DNA of 64,000 nt from an uncultured Candidatus Saccharibacteria bacterium. GTDB taxonomy: Bacteria; Patescibacteriota; Minisyncoccia; UBA6257; 2-01-FULL-56-20. Positions 3,233 to 47,502 of the stretch are shown piece by piece. The translations under genes and the position numbers were made by a program. The notes below the pieces were generated by a model, which was given only the letters and a program-made list of their open reading frames with translations, made no database searches and was not told the DNA's origin. The stretch's first letter is position 1; every line of letters begins with the position of its first letter. The DNA lies in the NCBI GenBank assembly GCA_964646415.1, contig CAZYEL010000002.1, positions 8,538 to 72,537 on the forward strand, given 5' to 3'.

Positions 3233-3841
3233 ATGAAAATTCTTGTTATTGAAGATAAAGATAAGCACCGCAAAGCCGCGCAGGAAACCCTAAGCGCTCA
3301 CGAACTCACAGTCGTTTCATCTTTCGACGAAGGTATTAAGGCCTTGAATCGAAAAGTTGACTACGAATTGCGGGAGCGGCTCGCCAAAGAGGTCGGTCTT
3401 GGAGATCTCCCCCAAACCGGCACCGATGCCAAGAAAGGTGCTTGGTTCAAACTCCGCAATGAGCTGAATGAACGCGCAAGCCAGCAACCCGACTTTGAGG
3501 TGGTGCTCGCCGACATGATGATGCCGATGAGCAGGGAAGGTGCCGCATCCAGCACATACCAGCGTGGTGTCGAGGTCCCGTACGGGTTCGTACTTGTTCT
3601 TGTAGCCGCACGGATGGGCGCCAAATACATCGCAATGGTGACGGATACGAATCATCATCACAGCGCGATGAGCGCATCTCTGGATCACCTTGGAAGCTGC
3701 TATTATAAAGGCGACGAGGAGCCATTCGAAATCAATGGGGCGAAGTGCCTGTTCCTGCACGCTCCATTCATCGAGGATGCCGCCAAAGATTGGGGTCGAG
3801 TGCTCAGACACCTTATCACTGGGTCCGACAAAGAGAAATAA
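3233..3841 (+). CDS. Atypical CheY-like receiver-domain protein
   Basis: It starts MKILVIEDKD. The putative phospho-acceptor region VVLADMMMP resembles the DLVLLDIMMP consensus. A roughly 60-aa insertion and a His-rich stretch (TDTNHHHSAM) make it non-canonical. Confidence 0.45.
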   Translation: MKILVIEDKDKHRKAAQETLSAHELTVVSSFDEGIKALNRKVDYELRERLAKEVGLGDLPQTGTDAKKGAWFKLRNELNERASQQPDFEVVLADMMMPMSREGAASSTYQRGVEVPYGFVLVLVAARMGAKYIAMVTDTNHHHSAMSASLDHLGSCYYKGDEEPFEINGAKCLFLHAPFIEDAAKDWGRVLRHLITGSDKEK

Positions 3842-3858
3842 CTCCCAAGCATTACCCG

Positions 3859-3899
3859 AAAACCTCACACATTTCATGTGTGAGGTTTTCAATTTTCTG
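3859..3899 (+). terminator. Rho-independent terminator after the receiver-like gene
   Basis: A perfect 14-bp stem aaaacctcacacat / atgtgtgaggtttt with loop ttc, followed by ttttcaattttct. Confidence 0.7.
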
Positions 3900-3983
3900 G
3901 CATCACCTTCCTCACACTTCGCGTGCATACACCATCGCCTAAGTCTGATAAGATAAGCCATGTAAAGGGAAATATCTCACTTT

Positions 3984-4946
3984 ATGCTTATTGATGACGT
4001 AACAATCACGGTTGTTTCCGGCAACGGCGGGAGAGGCGCCGTCGCGTTCAACAAAAATATGATGAGTCTGGGCCCCGCCGGCGGCTCCGGCGGGAATGGC
4101 GGAAGCGTCTATGCGGAAGGTATTCCGGACATCGGCGCCTTGCGGCAGTTCCGCCACAAAAAAGAATTTGCCGCGATGAACGGCGGAGAGGGCAGAAGCC
4201 AATTCCGGGACGGACGCGACGGCGACGACCTTACTCTTAAAATGCCGGTGGGAACCGCCATCCATAGCCTCGACACCGAGGAAACCGTCGAAGTAACGAA
4301 GGTCGGCGAGCGGATACTCCTCGCGCAGGGCGGCCACGGAGGCAAAGGCAACTTTCAATATAGGTCATCCACGAATACTTCGCCCCGAGAGTTCCAGAAC
4401 GGATTCCCGGGCGAGAATCTTACGCTCCGGTTTGAATTGAAACTTATTGCGGACGTGGGATTCGTGGGACTTCCGAACGCCGGGAAATCGAGCTTTTTGA
4501 ACGAGCTCACCAACGCGAAAGCCAGGGTGGCGAATTATCCCTTCACCACGCTCGAACCGAATCTCGGCGCATATTACGAACTCATTCTTGCGGATATCCC
4601 AGGGCTGATTGAGGGCTCCTCCTCGGGCAAGGGACTTGGGGTAAAATTCCTGCGCCACATTGAGCGCACACGGATTCTCTTCCACCTCGTTTCCGCCGAA
4701 TCCCCCGCTCCCGCCGATGATTACCGGATTGTCCGGAAAGAACTGGATACTTATGCAAAAGCGCTTGTCGAAAAACCGGAGTATCTTTTCCTTTCTAAAA
4801 GCGATTGCGTACCCCCTGCGGAACTGAAGAAAAAGCTTGCAACACTGAAGAAAATTAATCCCAAGGTGATCGCCATCTCCATCCACGACGAAGCAAGCAT
4901 CATAAAAATCCAGAAAATCCTGAATACTCTGAAAACGGCAAAGTAG
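3984..4946 (+). CDS. obg: GTPase Obg
   Basis: The Obg fold N-terminus is glycine-rich. The G domain carries GFVGLPNAGKSSFLN, a DIPGLIEG switch and the other GTPase motifs. Confidence 0.9.
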   Translation: MLIDDVTITVVSGNGGRGAVAFNKNMMSLGPAGGSGGNGGSVYAEGIPDIGALRQFRHKKEFAAMNGGEGRSQFRDGRDGDDLTLKMPVGTAIHSLDTEETVEVTKVGERILLAQGGHGGKGNFQYRSSTNTSPREFQNGFPGENLTLRFELKLIADVGFVGLPNAGKSSFLNELTNAKARVANYPFTTLEPNLGAYYELILADIPGLIEGSSSGKGLGVKFLRHIERTRILFHLVSAESPAPADDYRIVRKELDTYAKALVEKPEYLFLSKSDCVPPAELKKKLATLKKINPKVIAISIHDEASIIKIQKILNTLKTAK

Positions 4947-4954
4947 TCCAAAGA

Positions 4955-5356
4955 TTGCACAATCATTCCCTAGAATTACCCCTGAAGAAGCCGTATACTT
5001 CACGCATGGGAACATTGCGCACCGACGAACTTGAAAAGACCTACGCGGCATACCGGAACCGCGGCGAGCTGGAGAATGATTGCAAGTTGTGCGGGAAACC
5101 TCCGCGTCAGACTTTCCAACACTGGAAAATTGTGCAGAATGATTTCCCCTACGACAAAATCGCGTCGGTGCACCACATGATTGTTCCGCTACGACACATG
5201 TCAGAATCGGAACTCTCACCGGAAGAAACGGAGGAACTGCGCGAATTGAAAAGCAGCTACTTAAACGAGCACTACGAGTTCATTATCGAGCCCGTGCAGC
5301 GAAAAAAAACTATTCCCAACCACTTTCATCTGCATCTGATTGTCGCGAAGGATTAG
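4955..5356 (+). CDS. HIT-family hydrolase
   Basis: The C-terminal histidine triad is NHFHLHLIV (HxHxHxx). The true start may be the internal M at about 5006. Confidence 0.6.
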   Translation: MHNHSLELPLKKPYTSRMGTLRTDELEKTYAAYRNRGELENDCKLCGKPPRQTFQHWKIVQNDFPYDKIASVHHMIVPLRHMSESELSPEETEELRELKSSYLNEHYEFIIEPVQRKKTIPNHFHLHLIVAKD

Positions 5357-5361
5357 AACCC

Positions 5362-6291
5362 ATGAAAAGAAACTACGGACCATATCTCATATTCCTCGCG
5401 GCGATGCTCTGGGCAACGGACGCGCCATTCCGCGTACACCTCACGAAAGAGTTAAGCAGCAACTTCATTGTCCTCGCGGAGCACTTCGTGGATGTTCTTA
5501 TCGTCCTGCCACTCCTCTTCCTCCACCGCGCCGCACTGAAAAAACTCTCCGCGCGGCAGTGGTGCGCGGTTGTAGTTATCGCCGTGGGCGGAAGCGCGCT
5601 TGCCTCCGTCGCCTTCACGCAGGCGTTCCACTATGTAAATCCCTCCGTAGCAATCCTCCTTCAGAAGCTCCAGCCGCTTATCGCCATCGGGCTTGCCGCG
5701 GGCCTGCTTAAAGAGCGCATCGGCAAATACTTTTGGGGCTGGGCGGCGCTCGCCCTCTTCGGGGCGTACATCATCTCTTTCCCCAACCTGAAACCGGAAC
5801 TCTTCCCCGGCGAACAATTTAATCCGAACACGGCAGGCGTGGGACTGGCGCTCCTCGCGGCGCTTCTCTGGGGCGCCTCGACGGTTCTGGGAAGATACGT
5901 CCTCCGCAACGCCGACTTCAAAGTAATGACCTCGCTCCGATTCGTCCTTGCCTTTGTGTTCCTCTTGATTCTGAACTTCTGGCAGGAGTCTTTCCCCGCG
6001 GCAGCCCAGATTTCCGCAAAGGATATATTCTACATCGCCGTTATCGCCATCACCTCCGGCGTGGTATCGCTCTTTATTTACTACCGCGGACTTTCGACCA
6101 CCAAAGCTTCCGTCGCAACCCTTGCGGAGCTTGGATTCCCCATGGCTGCGGTGCTCGTGAACTGGTTCTTTATCGCCGACGCGACACTTTCGCAAATGCA
6201 ACTCCTCGGCATGGCGCTTCTGCTTTTCGCCATTTACAAACTGGCGCGCGGAAATTCGACCGAAGTGAATCCACCGACAGCTTCGGCGTAG
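5362..6291 (+). CDS. EamA/DMT-family transporter
   Basis: About 10 predicted transmembrane helices with the duplicated EamA-domain architecture. Confidence 0.75.
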   Translation: MKRNYGPYLIFLAAMLWATDAPFRVHLTKELSSNFIVLAEHFVDVLIVLPLLFLHRAALKKLSARQWCAVVVIAVGGSALASVAFTQAFHYVNPSVAILLQKLQPLIAIGLAAGLLKERIGKYFWGWAALALFGAYIISFPNLKPELFPGEQFNPNTAGVGLALLAALLWGASTVLGRYVLRNADFKVMTSLRFVLAFVFLLILNFWQESFPAAAQISAKDIFYIAVIAITSGVVSLFIYYRGLSTTKASVATLAELGFPMAAVLVNWFFIADATLSQMQLLGMALLLFAIYKLARGNSTEVNPPTASA

Positions 6292-6293
6292 GC

Positions 6294-7019
6294 ATGGAGG
6301 ATGGAAGAACTTACATGCCCATCACGCACGACGAGCAGCGGGAAAAATGGAACGAGGAGCACCGTACGCCATTCGCCCTTAAGCAAATGGATGTGCAAAC
6401 GGCTTCGAGAGGCGTGAGGCTCTTTTTGGAATTTCTTCAGAGAAAAGATGCGCATAATCTGATTGGTCTTGAGATGGGTTGCGGCAAGGGACGCAATGTC
6501 ATTGGTCTCGCGAGGGAAAACATCGTTACGAAAATGTACGGCTTCGACTTTTCCGACGTTGCCATCGGTGAAGCCCGACGGCGGGCGGAAGAAGAAAAGG
6601 TATCAAGCAAAGTCCAATTTGACGTAATGGATGCCACGCAAACCTGGAAATATGAATCCGACTTCTTTGATTTTGGCATTGACTGCTTCGCCTCAACCGA
6701 TATTGAAAGCATGGAGGGTAGAAAGTTCGCGGTCGGCGAAATGCGGCGAGTGTTGAAACCAAGCGGGTACTTCCTCGTATACGTAATGTCTACCGACGAC
6801 GAATACCACAAAATGATGGCGGTTAAATCCCCCGCTGATGAAGCGAATGCATTCTACAACGAAGTAAATGGTAAATTTGAGAAATCCTTCTCCAAAGAGG
6901 AACTCGATGCGATGTATAAGAACTTTAAGCTTATTGAGTCAAAAAGGATTGAGAAAGCCACGAAGTTCTTCGAAAAATCCTACAACTGCAAACTTCACTG
7001 GAGGGTTTATAAAAAGTAG
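6294..7019 (+). CDS. Class I SAM-dependent methyltransferase
   Basis: Motif I LEMGCGKGRN and an acidic motif II (FDFSDVAI), consistent with a Rossmann-fold methyltransferase. Confidence 0.7.
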   Translation: MEDGRTYMPITHDEQREKWNEEHRTPFALKQMDVQTASRGVRLFLEFLQRKDAHNLIGLEMGCGKGRNVIGLARENIVTKMYGFDFSDVAIGEARRRAEEEKVSSKVQFDVMDATQTWKYESDFFDFGIDCFASTDIESMEGRKFAVGEMRRVLKPSGYFLVYVMSTDDEYHKMMAVKSPADEANAFYNEVNGKFEKSFSKEELDAMYKNFKLIESKRIEKATKFFEKSYNCKLHWRVYKK

Positions 7020-7044
7020 CGTTGCATAGGGGTATAATGGTCAT

Positions 7045-20836: not shown

Positions 20837-20857
20837 AAAATTAATTCTTGCCTCATT

Positions 20858-20881
20858 CTACCATTCGAGCGAATGGTTCTT
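20858..20881. promoter_or_regulatory. Palindromic motif tctaccattcgagcgaatggttct upstream of uvrB
   Basis: It is near-identical to ctctacctttcgagcgaaaggttct upstream of the ArsR-family gene, and related to the 40-bp palindrome at 41075..41114. Confidence 0.55.
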
Positions 20882-20904
20882 TAGGGAAAAGAGAGATTTT
20901 AGTC

Positions 20905-20949
20905 AATAAAAACGAAATTGCCCGAGCGGGATTTCCCCCGCCCGGGCAA
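20905..20949 (-). terminator. Rho-independent terminator downstream of the AT-rich cassette
   Basis: The minus strand reads gcccgggcggg-ggaaatc-ccgctcgggc followed by aatttcgtttttatt. Confidence 0.65.
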
Positions 20950-20975
20950 CTATAATAACCTATGGTCTATTTTGG

Positions 20976-21383
20976 TTATTTTAAACACTTTGGAAGGCCA
21001 TTAAACCGAACGCAATCTTTAAATGTTTCCCACATAGAATCAACCTCATTTTTAGTATATATATTTTTCTGTACTTCTATCGTTTTATCCATAAACTTTT
21101 CATAAAATTCTTGATACCTCACGTAATTATTATTAATGTAATCGATTGCTACGACAACAAAGGCTATTGCCACCGCAACGGTCACTCCCACTATAAGGTT
21201 ATGGATGACTTTTATTCCTTCTCTTGTTTTTTCTATCTCAGAATCCAAAACGGAAACCTTTTTACCTAAAGTAGTTATGAGCGCATCCACCTCCGTACTT
21301 CCACTTCCCGCTTGACTTCCTGTCGCTGCTGCCCTACTTTCTGTCCCGGCTCCTGCGGCTGTCTCAGTTTGGATCTCGGGCAT
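20976..21383 (-). CDS. Hypothetical single-pass membrane protein (AT-rich cassette, gene 3)
   Basis: A low-complexity Ala/Gly/Ser/Thr N-terminus, one transmembrane helix (IVGVTVAVAIAFVVVAI), and no recognisable domain. Local GC is clearly lower than in the flanks. Confidence 0.45.
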   Translation of the reverse strand: MPEIQTETAAGAGTESRAAATGSQAGSGSTEVDALITTLGKKVSVLDSEIEKTREGIKVIHNLIVGVTVAVAIAFVVVAIDYINNNYVRYQEFYEKFMDKTIEVQKNIYTKNEVDSMWETFKDCVRFNGLPKCLK

Positions 21384-21387
21384 ATTA

Positions 21388-21768
21388 TCAATCTACTGTA
21401 ATAATGTCGTTTCTATCGAAGCTCACTACTTGATCGTTAATTTTAAAAATAATTCTATAGATGCCTTTTTCTGGAAAACGAGCCCCAATGAGGTTAATCA
21501 CTAGATTTGCATTGGGCTTGTTTTCGAGATTGACAAGTTTCATTTCCGAAGAAACAATTTTATTACCACTGGGCGATATAATTTCGATTGTTTTCTTTTT
21601 ATCAAAAATCACACCCGTCACGTTAATTGCAATTGAAAACCTCGGATGAAAAGCTGGAAGACCATCCGTTTTAATCAGATCAAATATACCTATAACACTT
21701 AATTTTTTTTCTTCCGAAAAAAAGGCGTTCTCGCATACATGCAGAAAATTTATCTTAAAATCATTCAT
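21388..21768 (-). CDS. Hypothetical small protein (AT-rich cassette, gene 2)
   Basis: 126 aa with beta-rich composition and no recognisable motif. It lies 20 nt downstream of the protease gene and 4 nt upstream of gene 3, which suggests translational coupling. Confidence 0.4.
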   Translation of the reverse strand: MNDFKINFLHVCENAFFSEEKKLSVIGIFDLIKTDGLPAFHPRFSIAINVTGVIFDKKKTIEIISPSGNKIVSSEMKLVNLENKPNANLVINLIGARFPEKGIYRIIFKINDQVVSFDRNDIITVD

Positions 21769-21788
21769 TGTTTTTTACAGAATATTAC

Positions 21789-22814
21789 TCACTTCCACCC
21801 CTGCTCCATAATTCTCCATCCGACCTGTTCTTGCGGGACTTGAATCGGCCCCTGCGGGGTCTGCTGCACCATATTCACTTGCTGTTTGCGGTATTCGATG
21901 GAAAGCTCAAAGTGGCGTGATTCCTGCCAACTTTCGATAAACGCAATCTTATATTGCTTTCGATTTTGCATAGCATTTATACCCAACTCGTTTTCCGGGT
22001 TCCAGAGCGTTTCAAGGTCCATATCTTTCCTGTACTCCTCAAACAGCTCCGTCATCGCCTTCGCAAGAAGGTTATCCGCGTACGCAACCGACTTCAAACC
22101 CAAGTCCTCCTTCGCCTCCTTTCGCCCGATGAAATACTGGTGCGAGTAAAGTTTTTCGGTGAAGTAATCAACAATCTTTTCCACTTCATCATCCTTCATT
22201 GGCGCTTTATGACTCTTCAGCAACCGCTTCGCGAGGATGCGGATGAGGTTATGAATACGGTTTACGTTCCCGAGCGCCAAAGGATGAATCTGCGGATTCG
22301 ACTCCACGAATTTCGAGAAGATACGCGAAAGCTCTTCGTCGTTCTTGATACCGAACTTATTTTTCGCCAAATCGAAATATGCCATCACGTCCTCGACGGA
22401 AATCGGGATTCTGTTCTGCGGGTTCTGGGGGTCTTGCGGGTTGAAAACATTCGCCGTTGAGGGGTCGATCGGCGAGATTTCTGAAAGGTCGCTCATCGCA
22501 ATTTCATCCGCGCCGAGAGCAATCATCGTCGCCGCACTGTGCGCCTTATACGGCACGAGTACGGAAAACTTATCACAATACTCCCGAATCATGGACACAA
22601 TCCTCCACGGCACCATTGTGTCGCCTCCGGCACTATAGAGAAACAGGTCGATATTCTGGGTTTTCCCGATTGCGCGGAGTTGCTTGCTCACCACGGGAAT
22701 CACGTCCATCGCAATCCGCGCGTTCACCGGTCCTGTCCGGTCGCTTGTGACATAGGTAATTACCCGCGAATTCCGTAGTCCTTGTATCTGATGTATGAGT
22801 TGTTTCTTATCCAT
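21789..22814 (-). CDS. SDH-family (ClpP-fold) serine protease (AT-rich cassette, gene 1)
   Basis: The core IDLFLYSAGGDTMVPWRIVSMIREYCDKFSVLVPYKAHSAATMIALGADEIAMSDLSEISPIDP matches the serine dehydrogenase proteinase (ClpP-class) core (...HTPGG...AMSGGT.IALAADEI...PVDP). About 170 extra C-terminal residues follow. Confidence 0.7.
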   Translation of the reverse strand: MDKKQLIHQIQGLRNSRVITYVTSDRTGPVNARIAMDVIPVVSKQLRAIGKTQNIDLFLYSAGGDTMVPWRIVSMIREYCDKFSVLVPYKAHSAATMIALGADEIAMSDLSEISPIDPSTANVFNPQDPQNPQNRIPISVEDVMAYFDLAKNKFGIKNDEELSRIFSKFVESNPQIHPLALGNVNRIHNLIRILAKRLLKSHKAPMKDDEVEKIVDYFTEKLYSHQYFIGRKEAKEDLGLKSVAYADNLLAKAMTELFEEYRKDMDLETLWNPENELGINAMQNRKQYKIAFIESWQESRHFELSIEYRKQQVNMVQQTPQGPIQVPQEQVGWRIMEQGWK

Positions 22815-22858
22815 CGCAATAAGGCAATTATACTCCAGTCATCCCAACTTTCCAACAG

Positions 22859-22904
22859 TTTCGTACTATTCGCTTATTCGTACGAATAAGCGAATAGTAC
22901 GAAA
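22859..22904. promoter_or_regulatory. 46-bp perfect palindrome tttcgtactattcgcttattcgta|cgaataagcgaatagtacgaaa at the 5' end of the AT-rich cassette
   Basis: Read directly from the sequence. It is centred on GTAC. It lies 45 nt upstream of the protease start and 44 nt downstream of the MazG-like stop. Confidence 0.75.
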
Positions 22905-22947
22905 GAATGACCACCCAACAGCCAGAAATCCGTATATGCGATTCTTC

Positions 22948-23325
22948 CTACCGCGTATCCCCGTCGCCGTGGAGCGTCCCGCGCTCCTTACGCGAGAAAA
23001 GCTTTTCGATGTTCCCCTTCGCAACTTCTTCGAGCGAGAGCCCAAGCTCGGTTGCAACCTGCGCCACGTACCACAACACATCGCCAAGTTCCCCGCGAAG
23101 CGCCGCCTTTCGCTCATCGCTCATAACCCCACCGTCATCCCGAAACGCTTTCTTCACTTTTTCCGCAACCTCCCCCACCTCCCCGGCAAGTCCCAAAACC
23201 GGATACACCAAATTACTGCCGCTATTCGGATAAATCGCCGTCTTGCGGGATTCCTTTTGGTATTCTTCGAATGTCATCGCCGTGAATTTATTTTTTATGG
23301 CAACCCTGCCTTCGACAAAGGGCAA
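22948..23325 (-). CDS. MazG-like nucleotide pyrophosphohydrolase (all-alpha NTP-PPase)
   Basis: The motif EVGEVAEKVKK...ELGDVLWYV is typical of small MazG-domain proteins. Confidence 0.7.
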   Translation of the reverse strand: MPFVEGRVAIKNKFTAMTFEEYQKESRKTAIYPNSGSNLVYPVLGLAGEVGEVAEKVKKAFRDDGGVMSDERKAALRGELGDVLWYVAQVATELGLSLEEVAKGNIEKLFSRKERGTLHGDGDTR

Positions 23326-45744: not shown

Positions 45745-46245
45745 TCAATTCTTGATCAAAGAAAACTCAAGAAAGTTGAGTACTTTATTTTTAAGTTCAT
45801 CAAAAGAGGAAACATGTTTGTCGCTTCTTTCTGCGATTATGATTGACAAGTTATAGTAGCCATACTCTTCCGGCCTAAAATCATTGAAATCATGGAAGCT
45901 ATCATAATTCGGAAATAATTCTCTTAGCTTAGTTTGATAATCTTTTTTTGTTTTGCCTGCAATATCGTGATCGTTGTAGAAAATAAAGAATAGCGTAGTG
46001 GCTAGAGCAACTCTTTTATTGCCGTTCGAGAAGAAGTGCCCTTTGCTGATTTGGACGAGCAGATAAGCCGCTTTTTCAATAACGGTGGGATAAAAATCCA
46101 TCTGTACTCCTCGCAAAACACCGCATAATTTCTCTACGCCATTTTTTTCTAACGAGAAATCAGGAACACTTTCATGTGAAGAAAAGTGGTCTTTAACAAC
46201 TTCAAAAATAGCCCTCAAATCATCCGGGTCTACATAAATCACCAT
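45745..46245 (-). CDS. doc: Doc-family (Fic/Doc) toxin
   Basis: The Doc signature HFFSNGNKRVALATT (HxFx(D/N)GNKR). It lies in an AT-rich island. Confidence 0.75.
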   Translation of the reverse strand: MVIYVDPDDLRAIFEVVKDHFSSHESVPDFSLEKNGVEKLCGVLRGVQMDFYPTVIEKAAYLLVQISKGHFFSNGNKRVALATTLFFIFYNDHDIAGKTKKDYQTKLRELFPNYDSFHDFNDFRPEEYGYYNLSIIIAERSDKHVSSFDELKNKVLNFLEFSLIKN

Positions 46246-46253
46246 TGATATCT

Positions 46254-46424
46254 CTATCTATCCGCAAGCCGTTCCAAAGCCCTGCCAAACCTAGTACTCA
46301 CAATGCTGGAGACCGATTCCCGGCGGCGCTTCACTTCACGATTTTCACGCTCGGTTTTAACATCCTTTCTTTCATTATTCTCTCTCCCCTTATTTTGGAA
46401 AAAGGACTTGATTTTATTGACCAT
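46254..46424 (-). CDS. Small charged ORF immediately upstream of doc, a putative antitoxin
   Basis: The minus strand encodes MVNKIKSFFQNKGRENNERKDVKTERENREVKRRRESVSSIVSTRFGRALERLADR*, ending 8 nt before the doc ATG. It is not in the ORF track (under 60 aa). No recognisable Phd fold. Confidence 0.3.
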   Translation of the reverse strand: MVNKIKSFFQNKGRENNERKDVKTERENREVKRRRESVSSIVSTRFGRALERLADR

Positions 46425-46631
46425 GATATGGATTTGCTAGAGATACAATTATTGTAGCACAAGCCCCTAGGTTAGTTGGGGACAGGGCCACATAGTAAAA
46501 CACGGTTCTTCATAGCATTGCAATATCGCCGGTTGGCAACAATAAGTTTGTGCGCGTTCATTTTTAATTCTATTTGCACAAAAAAAGCTTTGCGGGAGAG
46601 TTGGAATTGATGTATTATGCTTTCTGTTTGA

Positions 46632-46703
46632 AGGCCCCATCGTCTAGTGGTTAGGACACTGCGTTCTCAGCGCAGGAACAGGAGTTCGATTCTCCTTGGG
46701 GCT
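46632..46703 (+). tRNA. tRNA-Glu (anticodon CUC)
   Basis: I built the cloverleaf by hand. Acceptor GGCCCCA/TGGGGCT (G1-U72), D-arm GTCT-AGTGGTTA-GGAC, anticodon stem CTGCG/CGCAG with loop TTCTCAG, T-arm AGGAG-TTCGATT-CTCCT, discriminator A. No CCA is encoded. Confidence 0.85.
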
Positions 46704-47502
46704 ACGGATAAAATGTTTTACTATCGTGCACGAGCTTAATACGTCCGATATTGAGAAACAGGAAGCTATTGTCCGCCGAATTACTCACCAAAGATTGGGT
46801 GGATTCTGCACTTACCTTAATAAAGCAATCGATGTCTTGATCAAGCTTTATTACAGGTTGCCAAAAATAAAGGACGTAGAAACTCTTGAAGATAGATATC
46901 TATCTGATCTCGGTTACTGGCTTTATATGTCTACATTCACATTTCGATCTTGTTTCCTTCTCATCGAAAACGGTTATTATCTTGAAGCAAATATAATATG
47001 TCGAAGTCTGATCGAGATTTATGTAAAAATGCGCTATTTTGAGAACCGTAAGGATCAATTAGAAACTTTCGAGCAGCCACATATCAATTCTAAGAAGAGA
47101 CCCACGGTGAACTTTAAAACAATGTTTGATGAGGTTTTGCCAGGATACTACGATGAAGTCTATAGATTTATGCTTTCTCATATGGCTCATGGTGGGGTAG
47201 GGGCTCGACTTTTCAAAGTCAGATTCAGATCGCCGACAAATATGGAAGCAGACCAAGGCGTTGTATTCAATGAAGAGTGGGGTAGTATGGTAATTAATAA
47301 TTTAAGTAGTTATATTTTTGGTTATATAAGGTTTTATAAACACATCTACCCCGATACCATAAAAGGATTAGAGCCCGATGTGATTAAAGAACTATTATCA
47401 GTGGAGAAAACTTTAGAGACTAATTTTAATCAGCATATCCAGCTTAAAGGAAAAGAAAATGCTTGGCATAAAGTTTCCCGGCAAATCTGGGATTTCAAGT
47501 AG
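46696..47502 (+). CDS. Hypothetical protein in the AT-rich island adjacent to tRNA-Glu; possible HEPN/Abi-like
   Basis: AT-rich codon usage and no clear family. The motif RFMLSHMAH fits an Rx4H HEPN-like motif. The track ORF start overlaps the tRNA, so the true start is probably internal (for example the GTG giving VHELNT at about 46726). Confidence 0.4.
   Translation: MGLRIKCFTIVHELNTSDIEKQEAIVRRITHQRLGGFCTYLNKAIDVLIKLYYRLPKIKDVETLEDRYLSDLGYWLYMSTFTFRSCFLLIENGYYLEANIICRSLIEIYVKMRYFENRKDQLETFEQPHINSKKRPTVNFKTMFDEVLPGYYDEVYRFMLSHMAHGGVGARLFKVRFRSPTNMEADQGVVFNEEWGSMVINNLSSYIFGYIRFYKHIYPDTIKGLEPDVIKELLSVEKTLETNFNQHIQLKGKENAWHKVSRQIWDFK

Follow-up and report, generated by a model that had tools for sequence, protein, structure and literature searches.

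What is the AT-rich block of three genes that lies between uvrB and a MazG-like gene in the 64 000 nt stretch of DNA analysed here (the window), and is it, as a sequence-only reading had proposed, a single foreign island with a defence or stress function? The comparisons described below answer that the block, which lies in a groundwater Liptonbacteria genome, represents a module that is widespread and horizontally transmitted and is made up of a nearly invariant protease and interchangeable downstream genes. Judging from gene content and gene order, the module is probably an uncharacterised defence or addiction system, and we put the probability that the block is a two-part mobile conflict module, of the defence/abortive-infection or the addiction type, at roughly 0.5.

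Layout and composition of the block

The three ORFs are co-directional, on the minus strand, and are as tightly spaced as first reported, with gaps of 20 nt between the protease and DUF6941 genes and 4 nt between the DUF6941 and membrane protein genes. The features, in order of position, are:

20905..20951, minus strand: intrinsic-terminator-like hairpin and T tract, closing the operon before uvrB
20976..21383, minus strand: single-pass membrane protein, candidate effector (135 aa, transmembrane segment at about residues 63–85)
21388..21768, minus strand: DUF6941 protein, predicted all-beta sandwich, first gene of the cassette (126 aa)
21789..22814, minus strand: SDH-type ClpP-fold serine protease, invariant core of the module (341 aa)
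22827..22855, minus strand: sigma-70-like promoter of the protease operon (TTGGAA-17-TATAAT)
22859..22904, no strand: perfect palindrome of 46 bp at the upstream edge of the conserved protease block

The GC trough was confirmed: when the window is divided into 64 bins of 1 kb, the bin at 21001–22000 has the lowest GC content (0.383), and the deviation persists in a sliding-window calculation (400 nt minimum, 0.328), though the flanks are at 0.52–0.57 and not at the figure of about 60 % originally given. However, the trough covers only the DUF6941 gene, the membrane protein gene and the 3' third of the protease gene. Overall, the protease gene (GC 0.50, GC3 0.64) is close to host values, and it is syntenic in a sister Liptonbacteria contig (L003), where it is kept at the same nth-uvrB site. 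Hence, there is no compositionally foreign island of three genes, and the AT-rich unit that is swapped consists of the two downstream genes only, encoding the DUF6941 and membrane proteins. Across loci, the 1.2 kb downstream of the protease gene is mostly lower in GC than both the protease gene and the host. The claim of horizontal acquisition stands inasmuch as the evidence supports an accessory, acquired block, but the foreign AT-rich unit does not include the protease.

The palindrome noted previously at the 5' end consists of two arms of 23 nt that are 100 % complementary, with no spacer, and folded as RNA this region gives −46 kcal/mol (z=−6.3). The high-identity block common to the window and L003 begins within the palindrome, at 22897, and L003 includes a related, perfect 32 bp palindrome at the equivalent position. 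No palindrome was found in the protease upstream regions of most other loci, L003 alone having a related one, and it was therefore rejected as a conserved element of the family; a TTCG-N0-2-CGAA core is weakly enriched, occurring in 4 of 78 upstream regions where 0.7 would be expected. The palindrome may serve as an operator, form a hairpin or mark a recombination boundary. The promoter (22855..22827), which matches the consensus at 10 of 12 positions, lies between the palindrome and the protease ATG and leaves a very short leader (12 nt from the −10 hexamer to the ATG), and TTGAAA-17-TAAAAT is found at an equal distance from the ATG in many other loci. At the 3' end, the strong intrinsic terminator was also correctly recognised, and its hairpin (20951..20916) comprises 16 pairs, 10 of them G-C, and a loop of 4, followed by the T-rich tail TCGTTTTTAT. 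Rfam and tRNA scans in and beside the block returned no matches.

Exchange of the genes downstream of the protease

The window and L003 are 75–77 % identical in the flanks and 89.8 % identical in the protease block, and their homology is interrupted from exactly the protease stop codon to uvrB. Within this interval, L003 carries a cassette of c9, c18 and PIN-like genes. When the 76 loci with sufficient downstream DNA were examined, a co-directional ORF was found within 160 nt of the end of the protease gene in 59. The two genes often overlap, the median gap is 9 nt, and in most cases the ORF begins no more than about 10 nt from the protease stop codon. These first downstream genes form 13 clusters and 16 singletons and, thus, represent at least 29 unrelated families; many of the partners of the protease are small single-pass membrane proteins. 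Degenerate fragments of the protease gene were seen beside displaced cassettes in five locus types. L131, L085 and L130 have a pseudo-3' end of the protease that contains stop codons and is located 16 nt upstream of the DUF6941 gene; L062 and L070 also include 3' relics, and L076 a 5' relic. These displaced cassettes with their protease-gene fragments point to replacement of cassettes by recombination within the protease gene. The left junction of such exchanges lies in or at the end of that gene, of which displaced cassettes keep relics.

The DUF6941 protein had been described as belonging to no recognisable family. However, it matches Pfam PF22091 (DUF6941) over residues 8–114 with 66.2 bits against a threshold of 27 (E value 4.5e-18). 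Its structure model is of low confidence (pLDDT 64) and gave generic Ig-like matches only, so that no function can be derived from it. The membrane protein is, as originally described, a predicted single-pass protein, with a disordered N-terminus, a helix, the transmembrane segment and a C-terminal tail, and no family above threshold was found for it in the profile search. It belongs to cluster c5 and could be aligned with seven relatives. The c5 gene directly follows the protease gene, without DUF6941, in L015 and L020, and in L062 it is preceded by the protease 3' relic. No toxin or antitoxin domain was recognised in these two proteins of the window by profile searches, and they do not qualify as a type II toxin-antitoxin pair.

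The trio of protease, DUF6941 and membrane protein is recurrent. Among 15 loci with a close relative of the DUF6941 protein, the protease lies upstream in 13 and a membrane protein downstream in 13, and two have no protease. In L086, DUF6941 is between dnaK and dnaJ, away from the protease.

The exchange of cassettes could also be explained if the protease gene were a recombination hotspot and nothing else. The protease would then have its own function, for example as a peptidase or as an exclusion or defence factor that works alone, its gene would serve as a homology arm or landing site for unrelated cassettes, and the DUF6941 and membrane protein genes would be an independent two-gene unit. 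We consider this unlikely, though it is the alternative that survives best. It is consistent with the finding of cassette families away from the protease (c2, and c9-c18-c19 in L076) and of family members that have no partners (L127 and a gene in an Escherichia coli prophage), both of which also count against a conflict module, as well as with the two loci noted above that have DUF6941 and no protease and with the difference in GC content between cassettes and protease gene. Co-variation of protease sequence and cassette type was examined and rejected, as proteases share 79.7 % identity in pairs with the same cassette type and 78.4 % in pairs with different types, and the nearest-neighbour protease has the same cassette type in only 8 of 31 cases. 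Hence, specific recognition of substrates is not supported, and the result counts against a conflict module and in favour of a hotspot. Against a mere landing site, there are the operon-like spacing and shared strand in 59 of the 76 loci and a swap junction located exactly at the protease stop codon, neither an integrase nor flanking repeats were seen at the module, and the gene order protease, small protein, toxin is repeated in relatives that share only 30–48 % identity with the protease (see below).

Conservation of the protease

The SDH ClpP-class core identified from the sequence was confirmed by a match to Pfam PF01972 (SDH_protease, a ClpP-like family in MEROPS clan SK) that scores 52.5 bits, above the gathering threshold of 31.3, with an alignment that spans only residues 2–123 of the protease and positions 36–162 of the 286 in the profile. 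The N-terminal alpha/beta domain is a structural match to the ClpP/crotonase fold. The C-terminal half of approximately 170 aa, initially thought to be unmatched, aligns full-length across a large family whose members end in a conserved Trp-Lys. In an alignment of 32 sequences with identities down to 32 %, Ser93 (AHSAAT), Asp142 (SVEDV) and, in the C-terminal half, His225 (YSHQY) are invariant and follow the catalytic order Ser, Asp, His of PF01972. Asp142 is the likely catalytic Asp, D117 being nearly invariant in the same alignment. Because the catalytic residues are invariant, the protease is probably active. With 61.5 bits it falls below the cut-off of 250 for NCBIfam NF047768 (Clp_like_SDH) and, by this score, is a relative of that equivalog family and not the same equivalog. 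Neither a transmembrane segment nor a signal peptide was found in the protease sequence, and sequence searches against solved structures yielded no relatives of the protease or the DUF6941 protein.

Protease homologues fall into 3140 clusters, the best 120 of which are 81–100 % identical, and relatives were found in 139 of 185 579 species genomes, the best 80 sharing 73–97 % identity. The carriers belong to Omnitrophota, Nitrospirota, a wide range of Patescibacteria classes and Desulfobacterota-like bacteria (with 'delta proteobacterium' contigs of megabase scale). Relative to other loci, and with nth as the flank control for both measures, pS for the protease gene is 0.80–1.0 and pN 0.09–0.18, the synonymous sites being saturated, and GC3 ranges from 0.21 to 0.68 among loci and tracks host GC. 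Such extreme conservation is atypical of defence genes and argues against a conflict module.

Purifying selection of this strength would suit a housekeeping or stress function in quality control of membrane proteins, in which an SppA- or NfeD-like peptidase processes a membrane partner as 1510-N processes stomatin. The many small single-pass partners would fit, and the module lies within the hrcA-grpE-dnaK region in about 8 of 80 genome loci, a location that could alternatively indicate a role in protein quality control. We nevertheless regard this explanation as improbable. The distribution of the protease is patchy, the chromosomal sites of the module vary, some genomes have two copies, and the partners are mutually unrelated; a single syntenic site in all members of the clade, with one conserved partner family, was looked for and not found. 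The surroundings are, moreover, rich in restriction-modification and toxin-antitoxin genes. Though NfeD (1510-N, which acts with stomatin) and SppA are also ClpP-fold, ATP-independent enzymes, they have a Ser-Lys dyad, are membrane-anchored and have one conserved partner, whereas the protease here has invariant Ser, Asp and His, no membrane segment and unrelated, interchangeable partners. The NfeD1b_N profile scores 12.9 bits against the protease (cut-off 40), and neither cassette protein of the window has an SPFH match.

A prophage remnant, with a ClpP-like head-maturation protease and leftover phage genes, is highly improbable. In its favour are matches of the protease to head-maturation profiles (NF045542 and phrog_1684, both E value 1e-9), which are weak and limited to the ClpP core, a weak match of the DUF6941 protein to phrog_5881 and the presence of the broader family on 34 IMG/VR contigs. 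However, the best-matching profile of the protease is phrog_11747, of unknown function, no relative of the conserved clade was found in IMG/VR, and no portal, scaffold, capsid or terminase gene adjoins the protease, whether in the window or at any of the 80 genome loci. The homologue in E. coli prophages is a moron that lies apart from the head genes, between Q and the holin gene and on the opposite strand.

A possible function and known systems

The case for a two-part conflict module draws on the more distant relatives of the protease. In these, the protease gene is followed by genes for a small protein and a toxin, with gaps of −28 to +16 nt, and the effectors include PemK/MazF and PIN proteins confirmed with Pfam and a SIR2 protein that matches PADLOC Aga_SIR2 (E value 4e-15); in L125, PIN_3 follows the protease. 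A loose N-terminal Y/F-S/T-T motif was seen in the small middle proteins of these relatives and is not evident in the proteins of the window. The genes around protease relatives are rich in restriction-modification, toxin-antitoxin and recombinase functions, with an N6_N4 methylase within approximately 4 kb in 23 of the 80 genome loci, and with type III Res, RadC-JAB, Fic/Doc, Phd, AbiEii, GmrSD-HNH, EcoRI methylase and serine recombinase genes among the other neighbours. A defence or abortive-infection architecture, as first suggested, would be in keeping with these surroundings and effectors. The MazG-like and DNA-repair genes that adjoin the block in the window, noted earlier and confirmed here, are incidental neighbours. 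The MazG-like gene, which neither L003 nor any of the other 80 genome loci has, was rejected as part of the module and is a separate indel.

The first part of the proposed module is the SDH-type ClpP-fold serine protease, an ATP-independent enzyme whose gene has a promoter of its own and which is under extreme purifying selection and nearly the same in hundreds of lineages, and the second is a plug-in cassette that begins a few bases past the protease stop codon. The cassette consists of the DUF6941 beta-sandwich and single-pass membrane proteins in the window, of other small membrane proteins, PIN-like pairs or other genes elsewhere, and, in distant members, of a MazF, PIN or SIR2 effector preceded by a small disordered protein. 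We infer that the genes of the operon are functionally coupled and that the protease would control a toxic downstream effector by proteolysis. Most likely, it would remove a partner that neutralises the effector, namely DUF6941 in the window and the small protein where the effector is MazF or PIN, or else a part of the effector with the same neutralising role. Loss of the partner would free the membrane protein, leading to membrane damage and a stop in growth; the direction of this control, its trigger and any phage-related phenotype are likewise conjectural.

More tentatively, the modules may form a new class of immune or addiction systems, especially in CPR/Patescibacteria, in which an ultra-conserved ATP-independent ClpP-fold protease would be the universal switch for plug-in effectors (membrane proteins, PIN, MazF and SIR2) that are exchanged between phyla at the protease 3' end, leaving orphan cassettes with relics. 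Characterised defence or addiction systems are few in these host-dependent bacteria with tiny genomes. This compact module keeps one enzyme at about 80 % identity over several phyla, with a complete turnover of its partners, and could reveal how one protease is linked to many different effectors. The protease gene is also a ready-made anchor for mining new toxins and membrane effectors.

The combination was said to be unlike any described system, and no description of it was found in PADLOC or in the literature searched. PADLOC-DB v2.0.0 gave no match at E ≤1 for the three block proteins or the MazG-like protein, and PADLOC none for cassette families c2, c9, c45 and c5 or the E. coli homologue. 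Literature searches combining DUF6941, the PF01972/SDH protease or ClpP-like proteases with defence or toxin-antitoxin found nothing relevant. The closest named system is FS_HP_SDH_sah, reportedly from the phage-inducible chromosomal islands of Fillol-Salom et al. in Cell in 2022. It consists of a hypothetical protein and a protease of the PF01972 family (SDH_sah) and is listed as anti-phage; in it, as in the block, the protease has a small, uncharacterised partner and lies on mobile DNA. The window protease corresponds to SDH_sah at the Pfam level only, whereas the form found here has three genes, with DUF6941 and a membrane protein, and belongs to a protease clade with dozens of alternative cassettes and 73–97 % conservation across phyla. 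PMC13532340 names FS_HP_SDH_sah, a DefenseFinder system. The protease is not involved in the Tai paper (PMC11364771) or in a domain-centric defence screen (PMC13069673).

In tripartite toxin-antitoxin systems (TAC/CmdTAC and type VI SocAB), a conserved third component governs the stability of a small, labile toxin-neutralising protein, and the distant SDH relatives have a comparable order of protease, small protein and MazF or PIN. However, the third component here is a protease and not a SecB-like chaperone or ClpXP adaptor, the window has no known toxin or antitoxin domain, and proteolysis of the middle protein is what we infer. CBASS, Pycsar, retrons and gasdermin-protease systems also combine one conserved enzyme with many effectors, among them small membrane, PIN and SIR2 proteins, but the block includes no cyclase, reverse transcriptase or gasdermin, and identity of about 80 % is far above the usual conservation of those enzymes. 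Displaced downstream cassettes that retain pieces of a conserved upstream gene are also a feature of Rhs, CDI and other polymorphic-toxin orphan arrays. In those, the conserved protein varies at its own C-terminus, whereas here the same kind of displacement acts on separate ORFs after the protease gene.

A conserved protease gene with a replaceable downstream cassette

The three-gene block beside uvrB is well supported as one copy of a widespread, horizontally mobile module made up of an invariant SDH-type ClpP-fold protease that has its own promoter and a variable cassette swapped at the protease stop codon. The tightly spaced co-directional genes (gaps of 20 nt between genes 1 and 2 and 4 nt between genes 2 and 3), the 46 bp palindrome, the 3′ terminator and the DNA-repair neighbourhood (uvrA, uvrB, an nth-like gene, MPG, an Ogt-like gene and an HhH-GPD gene) picked out in the sequence-only reading were all recovered:

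22859-22904, perfect palindrome (23+23 nt) upstream of the protease gene
22855..22827, promoter-like TTGGAA-17-TATAAT after the palindrome, the -10 hexamer only 12 nt from the ATG
21789-22814, minus strand, gene 1, protease ORF, 341 aa
21388-21768, minus strand, gene 2, DUF6941 ORF, 126 aa
20976-21383, minus strand, gene 3, membrane-protein ORF, 135 aa
20951..20905, hairpin of 16 pairs with a T-rich tail, ending the block before uvrB

As RNA, the palindrome folds at -46 kcal/mol (z = -6.3). The low-GC island is also real, including the lowest of the 64 one-kb bins of the window (0.383, bin 21001-22000) and a 400 nt minimum of 0.328, though the flanks are at 0.52-0.57 GC and not the roughly 60 % first estimated. 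The trough takes in genes 2 and 3 together with the 3′ third of the protease gene, and the foreign composition claimed for all three genes holds for genes 2 and 3 but not for the protease, which as a whole is host-like (GC 0.50, GC3 0.64).

The source MAG is named Candidatus Liptonbacteria by NCBI, and the identical order of protease, DUF6941 protein, membrane protein and uvrB was found on two further public contigs. On L003, a sister Liptonbacteria contig, the protease gene lies at the same nth-uvrB site; the flanks share 75-77 % DNA identity with the window and the segment 22897..21794, which starts within the palindrome and runs to the stop codon of the protease gene, is 89.8 % identical. 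Homology is lost at the stop codon and regained at uvrB, and L003 carries three unrelated genes in between, from protein clusters c9, c18 and c19, the last PIN-like. The adjoining MazG-like gene of the window (22948-23325, minus strand) was correctly identified (Pfam MazG, E 6e-13; phage phrog_229, E 1e-39), but was not found at the other 80 genome loci and has no counterpart in L003, which has 165 bp in the same nth/protease gap instead. Because it is missing from L003, it is a separate, independent phage-like indel in the same hotspot and not part of the module.

Perfect palindromes with a TTCG-N0-2-CGAA core were found 30-90 nt 5′ of the protease start at 4 of 78 loci, with 0.7 expected: in the window (22859-22904), in L003 (about 5917-5948) and at loci L023 and L007. 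The window and L003 versions differ in sequence yet both are perfectly symmetric, which suggests that selection acts to keep the symmetry.

Conservation of the protease and features of its partners

The assignment of gene 1 to the SDH ClpP-class proteases stood (Pfam SDH_protease, 52.5 bits against a cut-off of 31.3), with only the first 123 residues aligned by that model. The profile phrog_11747 aligns almost full-length (E 6e-38), and most of the 429 representative relatives found at E ≤1e-30 in an exhaustive search have lengths of 330-400 aa, of which 270-340 residues align. S93, D142, H225 and W340 do not vary in an alignment whose most divergent members share 32 % identity, the residue order Ser-Asp-His being the source of the family name. 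Given the full-length family alignment and these invariant residues, the C-terminal half, previously described as unmatched, is part of the enzyme. Gene 2, thought to have no recognisable family, encodes a DUF6941 protein (PF22091, E 4.5e-18) with a low-confidence predicted structure, an eight-strand beta sandwich whose matches are generic Ig-like only. Gene 3 is, as first described, a single-pass membrane protein for which no family was found; its N-terminus is disordered and is followed by a helix, a single transmembrane segment and a short tail, and it groups in cluster c5 with seven similar proteins of other loci. None of the three proteins matched a PADLOC model.

The protease has 3140 homologue clusters, the best 120 of which are 81-100 % identical to it, compared with nine clusters for the DUF6941 protein in the same database. 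Relatives are encoded in 139 genomes in GTDB (one genome per species), and the best 80 of these, at 73-97 % identity, come from many Patescibacteria classes, Omnitrophota, Nitrospirota and Smithella/Syntrophaceae, and include megabase-scale 'delta proteobacterium' contigs; some genomes have two copies. These conserved-clade proteases form one 50 %-identity cluster, the next relatives sharing no more than 48 % identity. Their near-invariance is not simply the result of recent transfer, because GC3 ranges from 0.21 to 0.68 across loci, tracking host GC, and synonymous sites are saturated (pS 0.80-1.0). Together with a pN of only 0.09-0.18, this shows that purifying selection on the protein is very strong. 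The gene has also been exchanged recently in some cases, such as between the window and L003 (pS 0.36 and pN 0.017, against 0.76 and 0.11 for the adjacent nth gene).

Downstream cassettes and protease relics

Sequence extends 400 nt or more past the protease gene at 76 loci, and at 59 of these an ORF on the same strand begins no more than 160 nt downstream (median gap 9 nt; 50 of the 59 begin between -40 and +50 nt). The first downstream genes fall into 13 clusters and 16 singletons, and the GC content of the first 1.2 kb is usually below that of both protease and host. The following cassette types recur:

c2, a protein of ~200 aa with a transmembrane segment at its N-terminus, the first gene behind the protease in 12 loci
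DUF6941 protein then membrane protein, in eight loci and the window
c9, c18 and a PIN-like protein
c45, a 96 aa protein with a C-terminal transmembrane segment
c25 and c26, a GNAT acetyltransferase and a second protein, in Smithella
Bro-N and RhuM proteins

Cassette type is not tracked by protease sequence, as pairs with the same type share 79.7 % identity and pairs with different types 78.4 %.

Whether the trio is always together had been raised as a question. A membrane-protein gene is next after DUF6941 in all nine protease loci with DUF6941 (eight genome loci and the window). When metagenomes were also scanned starting from DUF6941, a conserved-clade protease (68-84 % identical) preceded it at 13 of 15 loci with a close relative, either immediately or at a distance of 0.3-1.6 kb occupied by additional genes, and a protein with 1-3 transmembrane segments was encoded directly downstream at 13 of the 15; the 24 loci whose DUF6941 members are more distant (23-35 % identity) have no protease. 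The trio thus recurs, but not always, and since a membrane protein of cluster c5 can follow the protease without DUF6941 (L015 and L020), the membrane protein looks like the core partner and DUF6941 accessory or regulatory.

Three loci (L131, L085 and L130) have an intact 3′ end of the protease gene; after it come genes for a c45-like membrane protein and a DUF2188 protein, and then a degenerate copy of the last ~56 protease codons, broken by stop codons and lying 16 nt 5′ of DUF6941 and the accompanying membrane-protein gene. Further relics correspond to protease residues 300-328 just 5′ of a c5 membrane-protein gene (L062), residues 322-339 (L070) and residues 1-31 before c9-c18-c19, upstream of an intact module (L076); none was detected in the window. 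These degenerate fragments show that the cassettes used to follow a protease gene immediately, until the arrival of protease-linked DNA displaced them, a pattern resembling the orphan cassettes of Rhs and CDI loci.

Distant relatives, functional coupling and neighbouring genes

No relative of the conserved-clade protease was found in IMG/VR, whereas the broader family (30-48 % identity) is present on 34 contigs there. Many of these contigs show the order protease, small protein (58-127 aa), larger protein, the genes being separated by -28 to +16 nt. Among the larger products are:

PemK/MazF toxin, L102 (E 8e-12) and L110 (E 2e-8)
PIN toxin, L093 and L099
PIN_3 protein after a 94 aa ORF, L125, a locus also encoding a HEPN-domain protein and an AAA_23/SMC-like ATPase
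SIR2 protein, 416 aa, matching defence-type SIR2 models (PADLOC Aga_SIR2, E 4e-15)
unassigned family of 141-244 aa, third gene, L092 (9379-10113), L096 (2580-3005) and L114 (9039-9626)

The unassigned proteins, without a Pfam or PADLOC match, may be a new effector family; they share a 'QGDIF/CDIF' motif at the N-terminus and, further on, a 'CD(L/F)' motif. The small proteins beside MazF have an acidic, Trp-containing C-terminal tail that in our judgement looks antitoxin-like. A loose N-terminal motif, hydrophobic-x-Tyr/Phe-Ser/Thr-Thr (for example INYTTAE, ISYSTAD, ITFSTGE and NYSTITNES), was seen in small proteins between broader-family proteases and PIN/MazF toxins (L093 9090-9371, L099 9074-9340, L101 1306-1536, L108 9124-9471, L110 6740-7066 and L102 8965-9291), and could be a putative protease recognition site.

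Functional coupling of protease and cassette is supported, though not proven: the genes are spaced as in an operon, the trio recurs, relics have been left behind, and the order protease, small protein, toxin is seen repeatedly. In the preferred mechanism, the protease would be a proteolytic switch acting on the cassette, removing a neutraliser (DUF6941 in the window, the small protein in the MazF and PIN versions) and so freeing a toxic effector, which in the window would be the membrane protein. The chief alternative is a protease gene that serves only as a recombination anchor, with unrelated cassettes piling up beside it. Housekeeping quality control, with the genes syntenic in all relatives, is poorly supported given the patchy distribution, differing chromosomal sites and unrelated partners, as is a prophage head protease, there being no structural phage genes nearby.

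The closest named system is FS_HP_SDH_sah of DefenseFinder (a hypothetical protein and a PF01972 protease), named in PMC13532340 and compared here at the level of the shared Pfam family. No published description was found of the DUF6941/membrane-protein form, the cross-phylum conservation or cassette displacement. Conceptually, this protease-and-cassette module resembles tripartite toxin-antitoxin systems, the NfeD protease with stomatin, defence systems with a conserved enzyme and modular effectors, and the orphan cassette arrays of polymorphic toxins. A full-length homologue, 34 % identical to the protease of the window (L168, 2229-3224, plasmid NZ_CP081704.1), is found in lambdoid prophages of Escherichia coli, where it is a lone moron on the opposite strand, with the Q antiterminator on one side and the lambda-type holin on the other; carried by 47 of 5426 complete genomes and at least 99.7 % identical among the 30 records listed, it offers a tractable model for the SDH protease family.

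Within about 4 kb of the conserved-clade protease, an N6_N4 DNA methylase was found at 23 of 80 genome loci, and a RadC-like JAB-domain gene (Pfam RadC, E 8e-44) is the immediate 5′ neighbour of the protease gene at ten of the 80 (among them L005, L009, L011, L015, L017, L045, L055, L062 and L072). A type III restriction-modification pair (N6_N4 methylase and ResIII) often follows the cassette, and RadC-JAB, protease, cassette and type III R-M may form a larger recurring island architecture. Other neighbours include type III Res, Fic/Doc, Phd, AbiEii, GmrSD-HNH, EcoRI methylase and serine recombinases. In several Patescibacteria (L023, L033, L069 and L070; protease at about 6001-7023 or 3544-4563) the hrcA-grpE-dnaK operon carries the module between its grpE and dnaK genes, and L086 has a DUF6941 gene (5001-5408) in the interval from dnaK to dnaJ. 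This heat-shock operon looks like a site of repeated insertion, or there may be a link to protein quality control.

In a second low-GC islet of the window (45745-47502; GC 0.409 in bin 46001-47000), a tRNA-Glu (46633-46705) has a minus-strand gene of the Fic/Doc family (45745-46245; Pfam E 9e-8) on one side and a plus-strand DUF5677 gene (46696-47502) on the other. The islet is probably a further small accessory or toxin-antitoxin-type insertion at a tRNA.
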